This document shows, one piece after another, positions 2,231-46,482 of a DNA stretch of 64,000 nt. Source of the DNA: Plasmodiophora brassicae. Lineage: Eukaryota. A program made the translations under genes and the position numbers. The notes under the pieces are model-generated. The model made no database searches. It had not been told where the DNA came from and was given only the letters and a program-made list of their open reading frames with translations. The stretch lies in contig CP145420.1 of assembly GCA_036867785.1 (NCBI GenBank), forward strand, positions 372,001 through 436,000, given 5' to 3'. Positions within the stretch are counted from its first letter, which is position 1. The number at the start of each line of letters is the position of its first letter.

Positions 2231-5200
2231 ATGGAGACCAGTGGCATCGTGCCTGGAGACGTCGCCGCGCCGGACCAGCAGCGCCCCGGCAAGCGAGCTC
2301 TTCGTCCTGCCGACGTGCTCGAATTGTTTCGCAGCGCCACGTCTGCTGCGCCACGTAAGCCGGGCACCCATCCGAAAGCCTGTGGTTCTGATTGGCGCGC
2401 GTTCCTAGATGGGCAGTTGCCTGCGACGGCGAGAGGGGCGCTCGGTCGCGTGCCGTTCCGGACCGAGCAGAAGCTGGCCGTCGAGTGCTGGCTGAACGAG
2501 AAGCTGGGCCTGGACCCGATCGTCGAGCTGCGGGGCCAGATCGACACGATGCTGGCGAACCAATCGGCGGACCCATACGCGGGCGACTCGTACATCCTGC
2601 GAAAGACCCATCTGTAATATCGACGGCGACGATCCGTCGTCCACGTTCTGACTACCGTGTTAGGGACCAGACAGGGCTGTCCCGATCCGCGTTGAAAGCG
2701 GCCGGCCTGGCACACGACGTCATCGATCGGCTGCACCGAGGGCTGTTCGTGTACACGACGGGCCTTCACGAGCTGTTGAGCGACGTTGGCCCCGATATAG
2801 CCCGGCTGTTCTGGAAGGCGTACTGGCGACTTGCCGACAGGAGCGACACCGGGTCCAGCGAGAACGGTCGCCTGGTCGCCGAAGTACGCGACGAGCACAT
2901 CGAGCATCTGCAGGAGGTGCGCGCCAGGATCGCCGCCCTGGCCAACCATCTCGACGTCGTCAAATCGCTGAGCGAGCGTGACGCCGCCCAACGCTCGGCT
3001 GAAATCGCCGCCGTCCAGACAGACCTTGCTGGCGTCCGCAAGGACCTGTACGACACCCAGACGGAGCTCGACGCGCAACGCAACGCCAACATCGCCCTGT
3101 CCAGGTCGAACGCCGAACTGGACGGGCGTATCGCCCGGATTCAGAAGCAGGTGGCCAGCGCCGAACAAGAGATCGCCAAGCTCAGGCACGATAAGGCCGA
3201 ATGCGAGATCGTCATCAACATCGCCGATCTGAGGCGTCGCAAGTACGAGGACGTGATCGCGTCGTACGAGAAGCGGTCCGCCGAGATGCAATTCAACAAC
3301 GGACGCCTGCTGACCGAACGCGCCGACCTGGACCTGAAGATGGGCGTCCTGTTCTCGTCGTTGCAGGACGCGAACCTGACGATCCGCGCGCTGAAGGACC
3401 AGATCAGCGAGTATGTCCTGGCGCGCGACCAGCAGCACCGGAAGATCGTCCAGGTCCAGAACGAGTGCCACCTGCTGACCGTGAAGTTGCAACGGGAGGC
3501 GCACGACCGCGAGAAGCTGGATGCCAAGTGCACGACGCTGTCGGCGACGATCGCAACGTTAACCGGGGAACGTGCCGCCCTAGTCGACGACCTCGGACGC
3601 GTCAGCGACGACCTCGCCCGCAGCAACTCGTTCCTCGAGACGGCTCTTGAAGAGCTGCGCGTCGCCCGCCAGGACCTTGACGTCACCCGCACAGCGTTAG
3701 CGGATCATCAGCGCGACCTTCGCGACGCACAGGCGCAGGTCGCTGATCGTGACCAACGGATCGTGGCTCAGGCGCGTCACGTCTTCCAGCAATCGGAACA
3801 GCTGGCGAACCTGCGACGACTGAAAGACGGCCTGTGCCGACGCGTGATCGACGAGCGCATCGCCCTGCGACACGCGAAGCGGGCGCGGGCGGCCATGGCC
3901 GCCGATCGCGACGAGATGGAGCAACGGCTTCGGAACCATCAGCAGATGCTGAACGAGGGTCGCGAACAGCTGCGAATGGTCCTGGCTCAGAACGCCAAAG
4001 ACGTCGCCGCCGTGCGCCATGAGCTCAGGAACGTGATCAGCCAGCGTGACGAGCAGATCGAGATCAACGCGACGCTGCGGGCAATGCACGAGGAGTCGCA
4101 GAAGGAGCTGGCGAACCTGACGAACCAGCTGTCGGAAAGGATCACGCTGTCGGAGCAACTAGGCGAGCGCGTTCACACTGCTGATCAGCAACGGCGGGCG
4201 CTGGAGGATCGCCTGGGCGTGTCCGGCTCACAGTTCAACCAGCTGGAGAACCGGCATGCCAACCAGAGCAAGGAGCTGTGCACGGCCATCGACGAGATCA
4301 CGAAGCTGAACACGACCCTGGAGCAGCAGCGGGAAGCGCTCCTGGATCGCACCAACGAACGCGACCAGCTGTCCAACGAGCTCGCCGAGCTCAAGGAGGC
4401 ATTCTTCGCAGACATGGCCAACGTGAAGGCGGCGCATGAGACGGAACGTCAGCAGCTGCTGGACGAGATCGCTAGGGACAAAGAGGAGCGCGACCAGGTC
4501 GAGAGCAGGCTGCAAGAGAAGCTGGCCGAGCATTACTCTGCCACGGAGGAGCTGGAGAGGCAGGTCGTGATGCGTGTTCAGCAGTGTACGAAGCTGGCGT
4601 TCGACCTGCAGCAGATGTCCAAGACGATGGCGACGGCCGAGGAACGCCATCGTTCAGAGATTGGCGTGCTCGAGGCTGGCAACGCCGAGCTGAAGGCGAA
4701 AGTCGACGTGCTAACGGCTGCGTTGACCGCGGCTAACGTTGCCGCCAAGGAGCACATGAAGGCCATGATCACCGACGCGCCGGTACAGCCGTCGTCGGCC
4801 AGGCCTGACATGGTCAGCATTGCCGTGCAGACGATGTCCAGCGGGATCACAGTCGAGCCGAAGACGAACACGGTCGCGATCGCGGCCCCTAGCAGCAACG
4901 CTGACCAGGCGCGCTTGACGCGCCTCCTTCGCGAATTCGATGTTCACGACGAGGTCAGCCAGACAAAGACGGATGAAGATCCAGTCGCCCTGCATGGACG
5001 TCCATCGGTCGGGCGCCGCCCCGAATCGTTCGCTCGTGCAACGTCGGTCGGGAGCTCGACAACGGGGACTCAAAGCGGTGATAGCGCAGGCCAGAATGTC
5101 ACCGATTTGCCTCACGGAGACTTCAAGGTGGAGGCTTCGAGTCGAACGTCATTCAGCCGACGTACGTCCGTGGGTGAATCAGTCGCTCCTGCAAGGCAGT

Positions 5201-5712
5201 CCAGACGACGAGCGCCGCTGTCAAGGAAGACGTCCGTCACTGAAACAGAGGACAAGACATCAGGTGCGTCGAGCAGCAGCAGTAGAAGCAGCGTTTTAGA
5301 GGAAGCGGCGCTGCCTGAAGCGACCGCGACACTGGCGGGTGTGGTTGTTGCGGGCCCAGACGAGACGATGAGCGCGACGAGTTTCGGAGACATGTCGGCA
5401 CTGGCCACGGGACGATGGAACCTATTGAAGCGCAAGGCGAAGCTGACCCACAGCGTCGGCCCGGCTACGGGTACGGAGACTGGCGGCGCTCAAGCAGGGC
5501 CCGCTCCGGTGCTGAGGCGACGAAGCAGCGGTGGCAGTGTCGAGGATGACGCCGACGACGTGTACGTTGGCAAGCCCGGCGATTCAGCGAGACGGCCGGC
5601 GCGATTGCCGCCGGTCACGTCGCGAGCAAACACGGGCGTCTTCTTAGCGCATGGTCAAGCGGCGGCCAGGGATCTCGGCATCGGTCCTTCTGTTCGGTAT
5701 CGGCAACGATAA
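2231..5712 (+). CDS. Large coiled-coil protein with disordered S/R-rich tail
   Basis: ATG 2231; introns 2355-2408 and 2614-2663 join frames into the 1106-aa ORF; ~600 aa of heptad-rich E/L/Q/R sequence. Confidence 0.8.
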
Positions 5713-15715: not shown

Positions 15716-17207
15716 TTACGATTGCGATCGTATTTGCAGGCCTTCAACGAGAACCTGTCGGATGGCCCTCTGTAGCTCGCGCCGATCGACGTCGTATTGG
15801 CCGCTGAGGTAGGAGACGCGCCGATAGGGTCGCTGGATCCACATCGCCATATTATGGTATACGTGCTGGACGCTGCGGATGGGCAGAACGACCTCGGTCT
15901 TCAGCTCCACGAGCCCGGCACCTTCGGCTAGCCATAGAACGTGGGTCAACCCGGCCCCGTGAGTGCCAACCAGGACATGGCTGCCACGAGCTTGACGAAC
16001 TTGTTCGATGGTGCTCATGGATGCGAAATCCAAAGACGTTGCCTGGATTGTACGTCCTGAAGCAACGTTACTGGATGGCATCATTTCGGTCAGGAATGCC
16101 GTAATTACCATCGATCGGCGGCATGTCGTTGATAATGTCGACGATCTCGGATTCCTGATCGACTGACATTGCCCGCCCACCATACGATGACTTAGGTCGT
16201 CGCGCGATGAACGTGATAATGAAGGGTCCCGAGGTCGGCGGCTGATGATCTGCCAGCTGAAAATGCCCCACAATACGTTGCGAGAAATCCTGCAGGAGCA
16301 GGTTTCCAGGGCTCTGCGTGCAGGGCGAGAACGGATACCAGGTATTCACCTGCACGACAGTCATTACATCAAGGGTAGTAGTGCACACGATCATGAATTT
16401 CGTACGAGAATGCTTCCGTGCCTGCCACTCATGCCCAGGATAGCCTGACGAGCGCACACTGTTCCGTCGGCAGCTTGGAGCGCTTCAACCGGCACGATGT
16501 TTGGGAAAATGGCGCCCCAGAAGGTATCGATTTCAGGGCGCTTTTTCGTCACCGAACCGTCTGCGACGATCACGTCGACTCCGGATGGGTCAAGGCCTGC
16601 AATAAGGATAGCCTGGAACGCGCCCAGCAGGCTTTCCATGGAGTGATACAGGTTCCAGTATTCATGTCGAGCGGCGAGAAGGATAGGGCGCTTGTGCCAG
16701 CGCCCGGAACACTTTTCAGCCAGTGTCGTGGCCGGCAGGGACTTTAGTGTCAGGAACTCGGCCGGTACAAGAGCCTGGTCATTGTTGAACTCGGTGATAT
16801 CACAGGACAACTCCAACGTCGTGGGGCTTCTGGAAAGCAGCGATTCGATATCCAGCCCGACGTTGTAGAACTCCAGATGGGACTCCGTAGTGGTCGGATT
16901 CATAACGCCATGCATCGTTTTCGCAGTGGCAGAACTCATGCCACCAGGCGTGCAGATATCGAAAGGAGCCGTCCCGGTCCAGGTTCTGTGTACACTGATA
17001 AGTGGCCACCGCTGGGTATTTGATCATCGGGACGTCGTCGACCCACCGAAGGAACCCCCATCCCAGGGATGCATCGCAATTCGTGAATTGGTTGACCCAC
17101 CGTTGCTGACGAACGAACGGGACGACAACGTCGCTCGTCATCACGACAAGGAAGAGCAAGCATGCAAAGGCCATCAATGCCAAGGCGGCAGCGTCCTGAG
17201 CCCGCAT
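15716..17207 (-). CDS. Glycosyltransferase family 61 (EOGT/xylosyltransferase-like), copy A, type II membrane
   Basis: N-terminal TM; RHEYWNLYHSME; FIARRP; VLVGTHGAGLTHVLWL..GAGLVEL; YHNMA.W. Confidence 0.85.
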
Positions 17208-17533: not shown

Positions 17534-19055
17534 TTATATTACTCCGCTATCGATACTTCTGTGCATGCCTTCGATAACAACGTGCCGTATGGCATCTTGA
17601 AGCTCGCGTCGATCAATGTCGTACTGACTGCTCAGGTATGATACGTGCCGGTATGGTCGTCGTGACCATACGGCCATATTGTGGAACACGTGCTGGACGC
17701 TGCGAAACGGCAGGACGATTTCCGTTTTCAGCTCGACCAGCCCGGCACCTTCTGCCAACCATAGGACATGGCTCAGACCAGCACCATGAGTGCCAATCAG
17801 CACATGACTGCCGCGAGCCGTCCGAACTTGATCAGAAATGCTCAGGGCCGTGAACTCAACAGCGGCCGCGTGAAAAGGTCGTCCTGCAACAAGGAAACTT
17901 CAGTATCCCTGATGAATCTCACAGATGTCAGGCATTCGCCCATACCATTGACAGGTGGGGTATCGTTGATCACGTCGAGTATTTCGGACTCCGTTTCCAT
18001 GGACATTGTCCGACCACCAAACGTGAAATTTGCATCGGGTCGTCGAGCAATAAACGTGACGATGAAAGGTCCCGAGGCGGGCGGGCGGTAATCAACCAGC
18101 TGGAAGTGCCTCAGGATACGCAACGAGAAATCTTGCAGCAACAGATTTCCAGGACTCCGGGCGCATGGGGAGAACGGGTACCATGTATGCACCTGCGGAA
18201 CGACGTTACCAATGTAGCGAATTGACGTTTGCGCATGGCTCATACAAGGATGCTTCCATGTCTGCCCGTCATGCCTAGAACGGCCCGGCGAGCACACAGC
18301 GTCGTGTTGATGTCAACCAGCGTCTTCATAGGTACCAGTCTCGGGAAAACAGCCTTCCACAACTCATCGATTCCAGGGCGTCTCGCTTTCAGTGACCCGT
18401 CAGCGATAATAACGTCGACTGTGGATGGATCAAGATCCGCAATGTGGACCGCTTGGAACGCCCCAATAAGGCTTTCCAGCGAGTGATAGAGATTCCAGAA
18501 TTCATGTCGAACGGCGAGCAGGATCGGTCGCTCGTGCCAGCGCCCATCGCACTGCTGACTCAGCATCCGGGTCGGCTTCCGCTTCAACGTCAGAAACTCA
18601 TCCGGAACAAGAACCTGCTCGTTGCTAAGCCCCCCGATATTACAGGCCAAATCAAGATTGGTCGCCTTGTCAGAAAGAAGCGACTGAGTGTCCAGAGAGA
18701 CATTATAGAATTCCAGATGCGACTCCGTCGTTGTTGGATACAAGATGCCGTGCACCGTCTTCGCGATGGCAGAACTCTCGCCCCCCGGCATGCAGATATT
18801 GGAGGGCGCCAACGATTTCCAGGTCCTACAAACTAATGAATACATCGGCACAGCCCAAAATCGTGCAGCGTCCGCGTCAACGCACCGAAGGAGGCCCCAG
18901 CCCAGCGTCGCGTCGCAGTCGCTAAACCGGTTCGCCCATCTCTGCTGCTGGACGAACGGCACAACGACGCTGCTGGCCAGCATGACGACCCATGTTAGGC
19001 ATGCCGCGGCGAGCACGGCGACGAATTTGGCGCCGGCGACGCGGGCGCCGCGCAT
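17534..19055 (-). CDS. Glycosyltransferase family 61, copy B (tandem paralogue of copy A)
   Basis: Same motifs (RHEFWNLYHSLE, LIGTHGAGLSHVLWLAEGAGLVELK) and collinear with copy A. Confidence 0.85.
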
Positions 19056-39600: not shown

Positions 39601-42257
39601 TTACCGCGGCACGACCATGCCAGAGCGTTTGCTGCGTTTCTGAGGGAACCCCAGGTCATATTCGGAGGTCAGAGAACGATAGTGACGCGCTTACCTTGTG
39701 AGCGTGGCGAAGGAGGTTCTTTCGGGCATTGTAGTAGGACAAGGAATCCGGGTCGGTGCTCAGAATGCGTTCGGTCTCAATCTTCTCGAACTGTTCGCCG
39801 TCGTCGAGAACATCGACGCTGTCGACGCCGCGACGTTGCACCTCGCACCACTGTAGGAACTGGTTCGCCAGACGCTGCTTGACCTGGTGTACGTTCTCCT
39901 TCAGCAGCGCGGCCTGGTTCCGCAGCGCGCTCCATCGGTCGTACGATTTGCCATAGTCGACCTTGCGCTGCTTCAGGTCGCGAATCAAAGCGTACTCCTC
40001 TTCGTCGATGATCTCCGTGCTGTCGGGGATGCCCGCGATCCGGTTCGCCGCTTGACGGTTCGCTCGCATCATCGCCAGCGTGTCTGATAGCGCGTCGATT
40101 GCACGCTTCGCGTCGTTGACTTCAGCCCCAGCTGCCTTGATTTGCTGGCGAATATCGTGGCTCTTCTGGACCAGCTCGACGTACTCGTTGTTGCACGTGG
40201 CACCATCGCCCGCCTTCCACTCCTGGAGCAGTCTCTCGTCGTCGATCGCGACTTGAACGCCAGCCGAGATCGGGACGGGATCTGCAGGTGCTGGCGTTTG
40301 CAAGAACGACTGACGATCAGGCGACGACGCCCGAGACAGCACCGCTTCGGCATCGTCCTCGATGTTGGGACGGGAATCCGCAGGCGCGACACCTCCAACG
40401 CTGAATCCAGTCGTTTCGACCAGGTCGCCAACGGGACCCGTTGCAGGGTTCGGAGCTGGTGTGGAGCCCGACGGCGGCGTCGCAGCACCCTTGGTAACGC
40501 CAGGAGGCGGTGTCGTGCCCGTCTTCGTAGACGTTACGGAGGCGGGCGGCTGCTGCTGCTTCGTGGCGGCAGCAGCATCGGGGGTGACGCTTGCCTGAGG
40601 CGTAGACGCGACGACAGGTGCCGCTCCGCGAGCCAGGGCGTTGTACGCGATCCTGAACTGACGGAACAGCTCGTGGACCTGCTGTAGGTTGACGACGTCG
40701 AAGCGCGGGATCTCGTTCGCAAGGTACAGGTCGACCTGGTGCCGAAGTTCAGCCTGCTGCTCGGGCGTAAATTCGTCGTACGACACCGGGCCGCGATTCG
40801 CGATCATGTCATGCTGGGGGGGATGGAGACTTAGGCGGGCATACTCGGAATACAACGATACGACCGACCATTGCCAGTTCTTGTTTGAGAAGCGCAATCT
40901 GCGATTCGTACTTCTTTAGAAGCAGCGTCGGGTCCAGGTCGATATTGATAGCGGCGTCGTTCGTTAAGCGCATCTACAGACGCCGATGGTCAATGCCCCA
41001 GATCAGACGGCGCGCAACGGCTGTCGTACCATTCGCGTGGCAAACTTCAGCGTCGAGATGGTCTCCTCGAGATGCCGCGACTCGGGCCATATGTTGGCGA
41101 TCATTCGCGTGATGCTGTTCCCGCCGAGCGAGTCACGCAGGACATGCGTCAGCTTCGACGAGCGGAACGGAATGTGGTCGCGATGCTTTGTGCTCAGGGC
41201 GATGACAACCTGTTCCAGGAACGACAGGGATCGGTTGATATACAGCGCTTCCTGTTAAAAGAGGTAAGCACCAGGCAAACGAAGTAGACCTAGGAGATGG
41301 TACCTGGAGGGTCTGTCCTCTGGAATCAGTCTTGGCGACACGTTCGCTGCCAGCAAGGTCTACAAGATGCAGCTTCGAGACGATGACCTTCTCAGACGAT
41401 TCGACACGCGATCGCGATTCAAGGTGCATTGTGAAGATCGTGTGCGACCGGGACGAGGCGGTGTTGTGCATGTGCTCAGCCATCGCGCGGTTCGACTCTC
41501 CTTCGAACAGCATGTTCAGGGCCTCCTCCTCGTTGCTGACGTAAGCGAGATGCAATCCCTTGACTGAAACGTTCCCGTTGCCATCTTCCCGTATGGAGAG
41601 ATCGCGGGTCGACGTTGACAACAGGTCACGAAGCGTTTCGTTATATATCTCCAGGTACGAAACCCTGACGTTGATCTCGGTTTCTAGCAACCGTCACGTC
41701 AATTAAACGAGGATAGGGAAATCAAACGCGCTGCATGCCTGGTTTGGATGCAATCGCCCTGAACAGAAGGGTGATGGCACGAGGGGATATGCCTCGATAC
41801 TTGTAGTCGTATGTACCGTTCCCTGAAATTGCAGGAAGATACGTCAGCACGGCACGTAGGAACGGCTCGTTCAGCAACGCCGACCCATCGTGAAAGACTT
41901 GCCGGCTCCCGTTTGGCCATACGCCATGAGCGTGCCATTGTAACCCGCAAGGGTTGACATCACCTTGGGGTGGACAATATCCTTAGTGTCCACAGGGAGG
42001 CACCGGTCACGACACATCCTTACCATGTCACGACCGCAGGCCTCAAACATGTCTTCTTGGCTGGCGTTAGGCATGACGCGGTTGACCCGGAAAGTCCAGT
42101 CTTGCTGAAGGTTGTTCAGCCCGGCAGCGGCGCCGCCCGAGTTTCGGTCCATGTGAATCGACACCGTCCCGGCTTGCGTGTCGAGCTTTATGGCATCGTG
42201 TGCGAAATCGGCCGTTGGCCGTGACCGCACAACGACCTGGATGGCGCTCTTCACCAT
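39601..42257 (-). CDS. KIF9: Kinesin-9 (KIF9/KLP1-like flagellar kinesin)
   Basis: VVVRSRPTADFAH, NN.QQDWTF, YGQTGAGKSFT, SSRSH, LVDLAGSER, HIPFRSSKLT, KIF9-type tail (IIDEEEYALI, DPDSLSYYNA). Confidence 0.9.
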
Positions 42258-42397
42258 CGTGCGGCCGATAGACACCTATTAGGGTCAATCCGTCATCCAA
42301 CGGTACTGACGCGATCGCCGTGTATCGTGGGCAGAGCGCGGGGCACTAATGGGGGTGACCGAGGGCAGTCTCTGTGTATAACGAGAGCGCCGTCAAA

Positions 42398-43479
42398 TCA
42401 GATATCGTCCAACGACAGCTGGAACACACAACGCATCAGGCAAATGCATTGAAACGTTCGAAAACGCTTACTACGAACCATTCGGGTGCGGTACGTAATC
42501 GCAGTGGATGACTCCAATGCCATTGCCCTAATATGGACGGGGAAGATCTCCTTCGATCTCCCATGACGCACCCTGTCCTCGCCGAGTTCGGGATCCTTAG
42601 AGAGCAGGAGATCGAAGTAGGTCAATCTGGACCGGTCGACGCCGTTTTCGACCAGATCGACAACGGCAGGTGCTGTATGCGTCCCCAGTGCGGACAGGTT
42701 GCCGCCGCCTTGCTCGTCGAGAGGATCACTTGCCAACTGGCACAACTTGATGCTGCTGTGTTTGACGACGTTGGCCCCATTCCACAGCCAGTCAGGCACC
42801 TCGCCTGTAGCCGTCACGTGAGAATCCACAGCGAATCTCAAGACAACTCATTAATGGCATGCCGTACGCGGAACAACGACTTCGCCATCGAAATCGTCAA
42901 GAAATTGCACCTCTTCAACACTCATTTCTCTACCGAAGGTGAACCTGAGCCATATGCATCTGATCACCACCGAGCCCGCACACTCGTCACCGTTCCCTGT
43001 GTACCTGCAGAACTCGTTGATGATAGACGAGCGAACCCAGTTCTGCAATTTGCGAAGGCAGGCGAACACAACACCCGTCACGTTAACGCCATCAAGGCAG
43101 TGAACGTAGCAGGGCAGGGTCGACGGATCTGGATCATCCTCATTCGGTGTCACGTCCAACGCGTCGACGTGTACGTCACTGCCTAACCGATAATGATCTG
43201 CAGGATCTTGATCACCTGCTCCTTGGTGATCGATACGCTTTCCGTGTACTTGGGCACACAGAAGTGGTGCGATGCGATGTCGTGCTCTCTGCAGAAATCG
43301 AGGACGTCGCATGTCGGGCGCTCCGGCACCAGCGACACGATCGTGCGCAGCCGCTTCATCGCCAGGAACCGCATGTTCAGCAACGTCGGATACGCGCCAC
43401 GCGACAGGCCCTGCTCGCAGATCGCGAAGCGGAACGGCGGGATCAGCGCCGATGACGGCTGCGCATCCGGTAGGTACAT
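42398..43479 (-). CDS. SIW14/OCA-family tyrosine-phosphatase-like protein (OCA6-like)
   Basis: LIPPFRFA..GLSRGAYP..NMRFL..LRTIVSLVPE; P.YVHCLDGVNVTG..ACLRKLQNW...IINEF. 3' end approximate. Confidence 0.8.
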
Positions 43480-43864
43480 CACCACCGCTTCACGGCGTTA
43501 TGACGCCCAGCATGCCCAACACGGCCCAATGCGTCCACACAGCAAGTCCAGTCGCCCTGCACGCGCAACGCTTCGTTGCGGCACCGTTGAGGCCACAGCG
43601 ATGAGTCTCCGGAACAGGAAGAGCCCCTGAGGAGCAAGCCACTGGAAATGGTCCTCGGATGTCTCCCGTTTCGCGGATTGCCGGTGGACAGTTCCGGTCC
43701 AGAGTCTGCGATTCTCCAACCGTTGGCGTCAGCAGGCCAGCAGACGGTCGTCGACTGTGTGGGTATCGTGCAGAATCCGACGGCCTCTGTTGCATGCGGC
43801 AGCGGCGAAACAAACTCTAGGAGAATATGAGTGTGTGATGAGGATGTTGGAACAGGTCGAAAGA

Positions 43865-44515
43865 TCACTTCAAAGGCCATCTCGGCAATGGCCGCGTAGG
43901 AGGTGAAAGTTGCAGTTACCGGACATCGTCTTCTCGTGAAGGCATAACGTCACCAGGAAATCGCGCAAACGTCATACAGGAACCCTCTCCTATCGTGCGC
44001 CCCAAATAATGGTGAAATGTAGGTGCTGGCATAGGTCGAGCTTGGCGCTACGACGTTTATGCTAATATCACGCTTCACCCTCGACAACGCCGACATCGAG
44101 GTTTCGTGTGAAGTGGCGAAGTTCAGCTGCGTCTTTAGGCTGCCGTATAGCTGTAACAGTCTCACGATTCTTGGGAAGTTGAAATCTATTGGTTGCCGGG
44201 TCGCGGACGGCGTGAATCTCTTCAGGTGTCAGCTGTCGGATTCGAGCAACTTTCCCACGTGCTGATATTAGCATAAGTGTCGTAGCGCCAAGCGCGATCA
44301 GTGCCATCACCTTTGGGCGCCCGATAAAACAGTATTCCTGTACGACCTTTCCGCGATTTCCTGGTGACGTTATGCCTTCACGAAGAGACGATGTCCGGTA
44401 TTTGGATCCGTCTCGTACGTGCACTATACTCTAGAACATCCGGCAGGCAACTGGGCAGCGAACACGGCAACTTCCACCTCCTGCGCGGCCATTGCCGAGA
44501 TGGCCTTTGGAGTGA
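43865..44515 (+). ncRNA. Long imperfect inverted repeat; candidate hairpin RNA
   Basis: Three ungapped helices: 43865-43913/44467-44515, 43917-43982/44335-44400 and 44021-44070/44263-44312. The repeat is directly visible; transcription and strand are inferred. Confidence 0.6.
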
Positions 44516-44839
44516 ATCCTTGGATCGAGTCGGATCCAGAAACGGTCCCGACCAAGCCAAGTTGGCGTCGACCTGCTCGGGCTGCCAATGAAAGGTCTGA
44601 CTGGGAAGTGCGAGCCAGACCGTGACTCATCCCGGTATCAATATGTATAAACCGTGGTGTGACGGGTGCGACAGGTCCAGCGATAGATCGTACAATAGAA
44701 GCGCCATCGGCACACTGACCGGGGATGCCTATTGGCAGGCAGCAGTCGCAGGCGTGCCCTCATCTATCGTCACCCATCCGCACTATTCCTTTCGAGACGA
44801 ATACACATCGCACATGTATTAGATGGGTGTTGCAAGGAT

Positions 44840-45203
44840 TCAGCAGCCGCGCATGACGGACCTGCGATTGGGGACAACAGTCAGGTTCACAGCAGAGGCT
44901 GTGCTCAAGGACGGTGTACCCCGCCGCCAGGAACGTGCCGAACATGAGACCGGATTGCGCGCAGGTCTTCGCCATCGTCTGCAGACGTTTGCCCTTGTTG
45001 CCAGGACCCATGACGGACAGCCCGCCGAACAGAATCCCGATGGTCACGCCCAGCGCGGCTCCTACAGCACACGTAGAGCGTCAGACGCCGGACGCGGACG
45101 ACGCTCCGGGCCGGGTCCTACCCAGGCCAAACCCATGCAAGGCTGTCATGGCGACCCGCCTGGCACGGGGTGACTCGGCGTGCGGAGGCTCCGAATACGC
45201 CAT
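44840..45203 (-). CDS. ROMO1: Reactive oxygen species modulator 1 / Mgr2-like mitochondrial inner-membrane protein
   Basis: GFGLG|AALGVTIGILFGG..SGLMFGTFLAAG|SVMRGC*; two introns. Confidence 0.85.
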
Positions 45204-45392
45204 CGAATCGTTCGTGTTGTCGCTCTCACGAATATACGCAGTCCGTGCAGCACAGTGAGCAGACGGTGCAGCTCCTGTGCGGATCATCCCGTGCCGTCCC
45301 GTCATTTGTGAGGGCTGCCCCTGATGCCAACTGCCCTATTACCTATTCCAGCCCGTTGCAACGCGCGAAGCGACGGCATGGGTATCTACAAT

Positions 45393-46482
45393 TCATTTGC
45401 GGTACATGGGGCGCAGGAACAGGCGCAGCGCAGGGGATTTGTCGGCGACGCGTTTGGGGAAGATCAGGCCGTTGCGTTTCGAGTATTTCGCCAGGGCCGT
45501 CGCCGACTCGTGCGTGATGAATCGGTTCTCGAGCAGATCGTAGATGTTGACGTGCACGGACTGGAGCCGCTGCAACGCTTCCGTCGTCGACGTCGCCGTG
45601 CCCAAGTTCAGAGCGAGCAGCCAGGAGTTCAATACCACCGGGTCGTTCACGACGATCAGTGCTCGACGGTTGGCATCGGTCTTCCAGCTGCTGCGACGCT
45701 TGGGTTCCTGTACCGGTGCCTGCGTTGCTTGCACCTGCCGCATCTGTCGCCTGTACTGACGGGTCTTGCGCCTCCAGAACGCCCAGACCCGATTCCGGTG
45801 CTCAGCCATGAGCGCGTCGTACGACACGCCCGGCCTGGCGTTATGGAGGCTGAGTTTCAACGCCGCACGATGATTGCGCTTGTCGTTCATGTAGATCGAC
45901 AGCAACCGGTTGTGCTCCCTGATCTGCTCCTGCGTCATACTTTTGGTCGGAACCGGATGCCAGCCGGCAGACGGGTGAAACGCAGCCGCTTGGGCAGACA
46001 GCCTCGACGTGGCTGCCGCTCTCAGAACGCGCTGCTCTTCAGCACGACGTTCCTCGTCAATCTGAAGACGAGCAAGGCTCGGCGACGGTAGCCCCGCCTT
46101 CTGCTGTTCCGCATCGCCAGAAAGCTTCAGGTTCTTCTGTGGAGATTTCTGCTGATGCTGTTGGACGGCTTTAGGCGCGACGGATTTGAACAGGACCACC
46201 TTCGAGACGTCATCATGAGTGGCCCACAGAATAAAGGGCAGGGTCCTCACCTCGAGGTCATCGTCGGATTTGTGAGGGTCGTTCCATGTAGGGGGCGCTT
46301 TCGCTGCCCTACCAGCAGAAACGGGCATCTTGGGAAACTGTGACGTCAGTCAGACACGTTCACGTGCGTCGTGCAACGCTGCGTACCCATTCAGGGGCGG
46401 CGCCGTTCAGCGCGACGCGAACCCGCGGCGCGATCTTGACCGGCGCGCTCTTGATCGCGTCGATGAATTTGTCCTTGTTCAT
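45393..46482 (-). CDS. Hypothetical protein with conserved-looking C-terminal domain
   Basis: ATG 46482, one intron into the 311-aa ORF; C-terminus LQSVHVNIYDLL..LAKYS...IFPK.VA...LFLR. Confidence 0.65.

Follow-up and report, generated by a model that had tools for sequence, protein, structure and literature searches.

A transcribed degenerate palindrome between the OCA6-like and ROMO1 genes of Plasmodiophora brassicae as a candidate hairpin-RNA precursor

It is well established that endogenous siRNAs of plants, animals and oomycetes can originate from long inverted repeats giving rise to hairpin dsRNA, and the Drosophila hpRNAs and the Arabidopsis IR71-type loci are long inverted repeats transcribed by the host gene machinery. 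In the part of the Phytophthora survey available, inverted repeats ranked first among the small-RNA sources compared per Mbp, and heterogeneous 21-nt siRNAs were described for a 714-nt inverted repeat, pin-IR2758 (PMC3804510). For Plasmodiophora brassicae, the accessible part of a 2026 report describes a palindromic genomic region yielding small RNAs, 21-nt phased small RNAs with a 5'-C bias, and a machinery of two Argonautes and a Drosha-like RNase III with no Dicer and no RdRP (PMC13547706). Since RdRP is absent according to these data, dsRNA must come from fold-backs or antisense pairs. The small-RNA loci presented in the same source are mainly intergenic, the precursors listed are 58 to ~990 nt long, and the genome has a GC content of 59.4% (Table S4).

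The stretch of P. brassicae DNA analyzed here (64 kb, referred to as the window; GC content of 57.4%, with the examined introns being 49–79 nt long) contains a palindrome of 651 bp at positions 43865–44515. It is located in the 1.26-kb spacer that separates two genes arranged in tandem on the minus strand, with ROMO1 upstream and a gene encoding an OCA6-like phosphatase downstream. With the Drosophila hpRNA and the Arabidopsis IR71-type loci it shares the long transcribed inverted repeat, for which one-strand siRNAs are the expected output. Like the palindromic 'miRNA' loci listed in the P. brassicae report, it is an intergenic palindrome, and the 58 to ~990 nt range of their precursors includes 651 nt (PMC13547706). 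By likeness of architecture, the Phytophthora 714-nt inverted repeat may be regarded as the closest described analogue, as far as the available part of PMC3804510 goes. In both cases the inverted repeat has several hundred nucleotides (714 vs. 651 here) and comes from a plant-associated microbial eukaryote, and a long, nearly complementary hairpin RNA is predicted for both. The locus of P. brassicae differs in having its arms distributed over isoforms of the two genes on either side, and a sequence relationship between the two is not expected. Moreover, 21-nt small RNAs were sequenced at pin-IR2758, whereas the locus presented here is known from its sequence and from long-RNA contigs. The criteria for hairpin loci given in the accessible part of PMC9757828 comprise small RNAs of discrete size, at least 80% of reads from one strand, a minimum abundance and a clean duplex with 2-nt 3' overhangs. 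The 63-nt bulge found here exceeds, at that point, the limit of 20 unpaired nucleotides set by the hairpin rule of that paper.

Both strands of the arms were also compared with Table S8 of the P. brassicae report (PMC13547706). No match was found among the 66 length-compatible entries (280–760 nt) drawn from 239 of the 240 rows, row 237 being left out, in a comparison made by eye and weak as a check. The nearest resemblance among these entries was an 11-nt coincidence of the 3' end of Pb-miR161 with the sequence at ~44020–44030. The PHAS and hc-siRNA loci of that report (Tables S6 and S7) are given only as coordinates of another assembly in the part available.

A repeat search in the 43500–45000 region resolved the inverted repeat into three ungapped helices of 52, 89 and 50 nt. 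The element is composed of the following parts:

43865–43916: left arm of the outer helix, pairing with 44464–44515 (52 nt, 92% complementary)
43917–44005: left arm of the middle helix, pairing with 44312–44400 (89 nt, 87%)
44006–44020: 15-nt insert present only in the left arm (an indel, seen as a gap in the arm-to-arm alignment)
44021–44070: left arm of the inner helix, pairing with 44263–44312 (50 nt, 86%)
44071–44262: spacer (loop) of 192 nt
44263–44312: right arm of the inner helix, the partner of 44021–44070
44312–44400: right arm of the middle helix, containing the perfect run 44352–44383
44401–44463: 63-nt insert present only in the right arm (an indel, forming a large bulge in any hairpin)
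44464–44515: right arm of the outer helix, located inside a contig of RNA run X8 bearing a ROMO1 splice junction

An earlier reading of the same letters, made from the sequence only, had proposed helices of 49, 66 and 50 bp. These values stand as conservative cores, with the full helices being longer for the outer and middle pairs. The longest perfect runs in the arms were 26, 32 and 15 bp, and the 32-bp one (43934–43965 / 44352–44383) had been correctly recognized in that reading. Gapped local alignment of the left half with the reverse complement of the right half, including 365 nt of flank on each side, returned the same three blocks only and revealed that the arm homology ends sharply at 43865 and 44515. 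The element is a degenerate palindrome, in which a unit of ~206 bp has been duplicated in inverted orientation around a 192-bp spacer. Its GC content is 0.53, compared with 0.586 in the remaining intergenic spacer. The palindrome was the sole inverted repeat of at least 30 nt in the 64-kb window, no second copy or fragment of the element was found elsewhere in the window at a word size of 9, and no tandem repeats were detected in 43000–45500. The locus is apparently single-copy as far as is visible within the 64-kb window.

The arms diverge by 12%. The census of 191 arm positions gave 168 Watson–Crick pairs, 7 G-U pairs (read on the plus strand), 6 A-C mismatches and 10 transversion mismatches. 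The outer helix comprised 48 Watson–Crick, 2 G-U, 1 A-C and 1 other pair, and the inner one 43 Watson–Crick, 4 G-U and 3 other. An excess of G-U wobbles on the plus strand (at least 7 vs. about 3 A-C) had been put forward in the sequence-only reading; the count of 7 vs. 6 does not bear it out, and the 6 A-C mismatches of the plus strand are G-U pairs on the minus strand. Altogether, 23 arm mismatches were found, 13 of them transitions and 10 transversions, in addition to the two indels of 15 and 63 nt. Judged from the sequence, the differences between the arms look like neutral decay and not like maintained pairing. The proportion of transitions to transversions, the lack of a wobble bias and the presence of two indels argue against selection maintaining the pairing. 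As the pairing is not evidently selected, any siRNA output of the locus would be read as a by-product of a decaying duplication and not as the product of a conserved structured RNA.

The folding of the 43840–44590 region on both strands against shuffled sequences, a check of the kind which the sequence-only reading had proposed, gave −412.1 kcal/mol with a z-score of −21.4 for the plus strand and −407.6 kcal/mol with a z-score of −24.8 for the minus strand, and none of the 20 shuffles was as good on either of them. The fold-back is genuine and goes far beyond what chance would give. Its recognition between the OCA6-like and ROMO1 genes was borne out by the three helices, by these z-scores and by the Pfam assignment of the two neighbors. 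The element folded alone reached −374.1 (plus) and −368.3 (minus) kcal/mol, both strands folding equally well with no strand preference. The loop had been claimed to fold as well, and this was not confirmed. No structure beyond chance was observed for 44071–44262 on the plus strand (z = −0.44, 63 of 200 shuffles as good) or on the minus strand (z = +0.43, 126 of 200). The additional outer helix of 11 nt pairing 43850–43860 with 44568–44578 does exist, with 10 of its 11 pairs formed, but is marginal as it was equalled by 10 of 300 shuffled flanks.

RNA from four runs originating from four studies (X8, X9, X10 and X14) was mapped as contigs on 43100–45100. The contigs of all four runs represent RNA, as splice joints were present in each of them, and no letter in them differed from the window. 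The depth was available as one figure per contig and refers to whole contigs, not to the individual arms. The genes and introns considered are listed below:

42851–43497, minus strand: OCA6-like gene, Y_phosphatase2 (Pfam, 2.2e-15)
43188–43479, minus strand: exon 1 of the OCA6-like gene, with the ATG at 43479–43477 and the exon joint 43128/43188 detected in four of four runs
43470–43542, plus strand: intron of 73 nt, joint 43468/43542 in X9, GTAGGT...CACAG
44262–44310, minus strand: intron of 49 nt, detected in X14 only, in which 44125–44261 is joined to 44311–44428 (CT..AC, depth of 4.64)
44354–45152, minus strand: ROMO1 transcripts, based on RNA contigs, translations and Pfam Romo1
44760–45080, minus strand: ROMO1, Romo1 domain (Pfam, 2.7e-08)

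In the canonical ROMO1 mRNA, represented by X14, the intron at ~44860–44919 is removed and the encoded protein ends with ...GSVMRGC*. The poly(A) site of this mRNA was placed at ~44790 on the basis of a loose end with a T-run in the X14 contig. An alternative ROMO1 isoform was identified in X8, in which 44354–44782 is joined to 44862–45057 with CT..AC ends, which indicates the minus strand. This isoform retains the ~44860–44919 intron, lacks 44783–44861 and extends to at least 44354. It passes the normal poly(A) site and crosses the right arm of the outer helix and half of that of the middle helix. The 3' end of ROMO1 is characterized by two mutually exclusive splice patterns, the alternative one altering the C-terminus and giving a 3'UTR more than 430 nt longer. 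A further ROMO1 intron of 60 nt was observed at ~45063–45122.

On the other side of the palindrome, the ends of the 43470–43542 intron are canonical on the plus strand only, the minus strand reading TG..CC or CT..AC. Its skipping removes the ATG of the OCA6-like gene (43479–43477). One of the X14 contigs starts exactly at 43542, which is consistent with the same plus-strand junction. In the simplest reading, this intron belongs to an RNA of the plus strand, which is antisense to the beginning of the OCA6-like gene and continues in the direction of the left arm, and which the unstranded assembly merged with the minus-strand OCA6-like mRNA.

The arms and the loop of the palindrome were overlapped by RNA contigs in all four runs. 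The outer left arm was covered fully in X8, X9 and X10, and to 43909 in X14. Contigs bearing the exon-1/exon-2 junction of the OCA6-like gene extended upstream to 43953 (X10), 43963 (X8) and 43987 (X9). In X14, the main OCA6-like contig ended at 43488 and separate contigs of low depth, one of them spanning 43720–43909, reached 43909. The right arm was represented by contigs 44309–44509 in X10, 44418–44577 in X9, 44311–44428 in X14 and by the contig starting at 44354 in X8. Loop contigs were found in each of the four runs with a depth of 3.1–7.4, together spanning 44023–44261. The regions 43988–44022 and 44262–44308 were covered by no contig and no conclusion was drawn from this.

The 49-nt minus-strand intron excises almost exactly the inner right arm and carries the signals GTGATG...CTAAT...CAG on that strand. 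The spliced minus-strand RNA of X14 spans the loop and the right arm. Without these 49 nt, the outer and middle helices still fold with −318 kcal/mol. No contig bridging both arms was found in the four runs. Of the transcribed long hairpin proposed from the sequence, the transcription was thus confirmed in four of four runs, whereas no contig joins the arms.

In X8, the contigs stop at 43963 and start again at 44354, both positions lying at most 2 nt from an end of the 32-bp perfect run. At a shared repeat, a break is expected in a 31-mer assembly graph. The two X8 breaks are most simply explained in this way by the shared 32-bp run and probably do not represent RNA ends; such a break pattern also suggests that both arms were expressed in one sample.

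All strand-informative joints within the element and to the right of it were of the minus strand, and the plus-strand intron at 43470–43542 is located to the left. The RNA of the left arm may be a long leader of the OCA6-like mRNA (minus strand), an antisense RNA (plus strand) or both. As the plus-strand intron makes it possible that the left-arm RNA is partly of the plus strand, the two arms could sit on convergent RNAs and not on one hairpin. The earlier argument for the plus strand lost its basis in view of the 7 vs. 6 count and the equal folding of both strands.

The searches for coding signatures supported the claim that the arms hold no convincing ORF. No Pfam family was assigned to any of the nine ORFs overlapping or abutting the element, and Pfam analysis of four neighboring ORFs revealed Y_phosphatase2 (twice), Romo1 and a sub-threshold S10. 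The 120-aa ORF at 44068–44430 on the minus strand showed no credible relatives. The word-indexed protein search gave 29 candidates, none of them at E ≤ 0.01, and an exhaustive HMMER search against 1.84 billion representatives returned a single match (E = 3.2e-4). This match concerned a motif of 12 residues that recurs within a protein of 1200 aa and was rejected as a repeat-inflated chance hit. Among the checks proposed earlier, the Rfam search of 43000–45500 on both strands was carried out and gave no matches at E ≤ 1. A 24-mer of the perfect run had no matches in metagenome contigs, from which the organism may simply be absent. For exon 1 of the OCA6-like gene, 174 pattern matches were obtained in the metagenome contigs, with no relatives among them by tblastn.

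The terms 'miRNA-like' and 'unrecognised structured ncRNA', used in the sequence-only reading, gained no specific support. A canonical miRNA gene, which would be a short hairpin free of large bulges and secondary stems and giving one precise duplex, was considered and rejected, the fold-back being 651 nt long, with one-sided inserts of 15 and 63 nt and a loop of 192 nt. With respect to the proto-MIRNA model of gene-fragment duplication, the arms resembled nothing else in the 64-kb window and no protein relatives were found. As in hpRNA loci, the inverted repeat is long and can pair into an extended duplex. Its description as a candidate hpRNA precursor is reasonable but unproven.

The reading we favor, tentatively and at somewhat less than an even chance, is that of a decaying inverted duplication co-transcribed with the UTRs of its neighbors, which yields hairpin dsRNA and probably siRNAs. 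A minus-strand read-through RNA carrying both arms would form an imperfect ~190-bp duplex with a folding energy of about −368 kcal/mol. Pairing in trans between the long 3'UTR of ROMO1 and the long leader of the OCA6-like mRNA would be the alternative. The putative RNase III/Argonaute machinery would cut such dsRNA into siRNAs, making the region an hpRNA or inverted-repeat siRNA locus. dsRNA with perfect runs of 26 and 32 bp is a normal RNase III substrate, so hairpin siRNAs would be expected from it where RNAi exists. Because the arms lie in isoforms of two neighbors, any siRNAs of one arm would find their complement in the long isoform of the other gene.

Loci of this kind are already known and one more is unsurprising. 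This one is a transcribed, apparently single-copy locus with arms in alternative UTR isoforms of two housekeeping-type neighbors, and the palindrome offers a small, clean test case of whether read-through transcription feeds RNAi in cis, and also of the origin of siRNA precursors in a parasite lacking RdRP. If small RNAs are absent from the locus, it is simply a decaying duplication. A more far-reaching version, which we regard as highly doubtful, is that the palindrome is split by design into an arm reached by ROMO1 read-through and an arm in the OCA6-like leader, siRNAs coupling termination or isoform choice to the silencing of both genes. If this were true, a failure of ROMO1 termination would create the hairpin, or the isoforms would pair in trans, and an RNAi system without RdRP would have a concrete source of siRNA precursors.

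The main rival readings are an inert relic and a MITE. The same decaying local inverted duplication could be an inert relic, transcribed through the UTRs or read-through of close genes, functionless and giving no consequential small RNAs, which we consider rather unlikely though well short of negligible. The neutral-looking mismatches (13 transitions and 10 transversions, G-U/A-C of 7/6) with the two large indels, the loop not structured beyond chance and the zero Rfam matches all fit such a relic, as do the coverage of the palindrome center only at a contig depth of 3.1–7.4 and the splicing of the inner right arm out of one RNA (X14). However, in any organism with RNAi, a transcribed duplex so close to perfect, with its 26- and 32-bp runs, is naturally a substrate of RNase III, and the highest small-RNA potency per Mbp was that of inverted repeats in one comparable survey, in the part of it available (PMC3804510). 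The absence of any sign of selection on the pairing, which suits the relic, speaks in turn against a cis-acting structural element working without small RNAs, either as a termination or insulation hairpin or as a leader controlling OCA6-like translation. The palindrome does sit exactly between the poly(A) site (~44790) and the start codon that follows (43479). In three of four runs, the left arm is where the contigs extending from the OCA6-like gene end, and the two ROMO1 isoforms differ in reaching an arm. The shared 32-bp run, though, accounts for the contig ends at 43963 and 44354, and the leader carries one arm only, so that it would not fold on itself; we regard this role as extremely improbable.

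A transposon origin, with the element being one member of a dispersed family of non-autonomous fold-back transposons (MITEs with long TIRs) that inserted between the two genes and any hairpin RNA being secondary, was judged improbable. The 651-bp size, the terminal inverted repeats, the lack of coding capacity, the composition of mostly arms and the sharp symmetric ends at 43865 and 44515 agree with such an element, although any inverted duplication would be expected to have symmetric ends. The GC content of 0.53 vs. 0.586 in the rest of the spacer points in the same direction, and so do the termini, TCACT.../...AGTGA, which in our estimation loosely resemble CACTA-type ends. TIR elements, CACTA and Mutator among them, are annotated in the P. 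brassicae genome (Table S5 in the accessible part of PMC13547706). Fungal MITEs, as presented in the available part of PMC3227409, are likewise small, non-coding, dominated by inverted arms and located near genes. The element described here differs from them in the lack of a detectable TSD, in its occurrence at a single place in the 64-kb window (no further copies or fragments at word size 9) and in its 12% arm divergence, which is high for an active MITE. The absence of a TSD had been noted from the sequence and was upheld: in a scan shifting each end by up to ±4 nt (81 offset combinations per length), only direct matches of 2–3 nt were found, as chance allows, and no TSD of 5–11 nt with at most one mismatch was present at the element ends. 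Furthermore, no partly matching RNA contigs diverging at the element were observed, the only loose ends being those at 44790 and 45062.

Some other features of the window were noticed. Directly upstream of ROMO1, a 318-aa open frame is present on the minus strand (45393–46349), for which Pfam gave only a sub-threshold Ribosomal_S10 (E = 0.098). An uninterrupted frame of 1106 aa lies on the plus strand at 2392–5712, with no Pfam families at E ≤ 1e-5. Two families of direct repeats, 300 nt long with 71–74% identity and a spacing of 1827–1840 bp, were found at 15735–16802 and 17562–18642, and look like a diverged tandem duplication of a ~1.8-kb unit. On the minus strand, 39656–42275 encodes a kinesin with a KIF9 domain (PF23735, 4.1e-15) and the N-terminus of the motor domain at 41871–42275. 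This KIF9-type kinesin, which we take to be a flagellar motor, suggests a flagellated organism.
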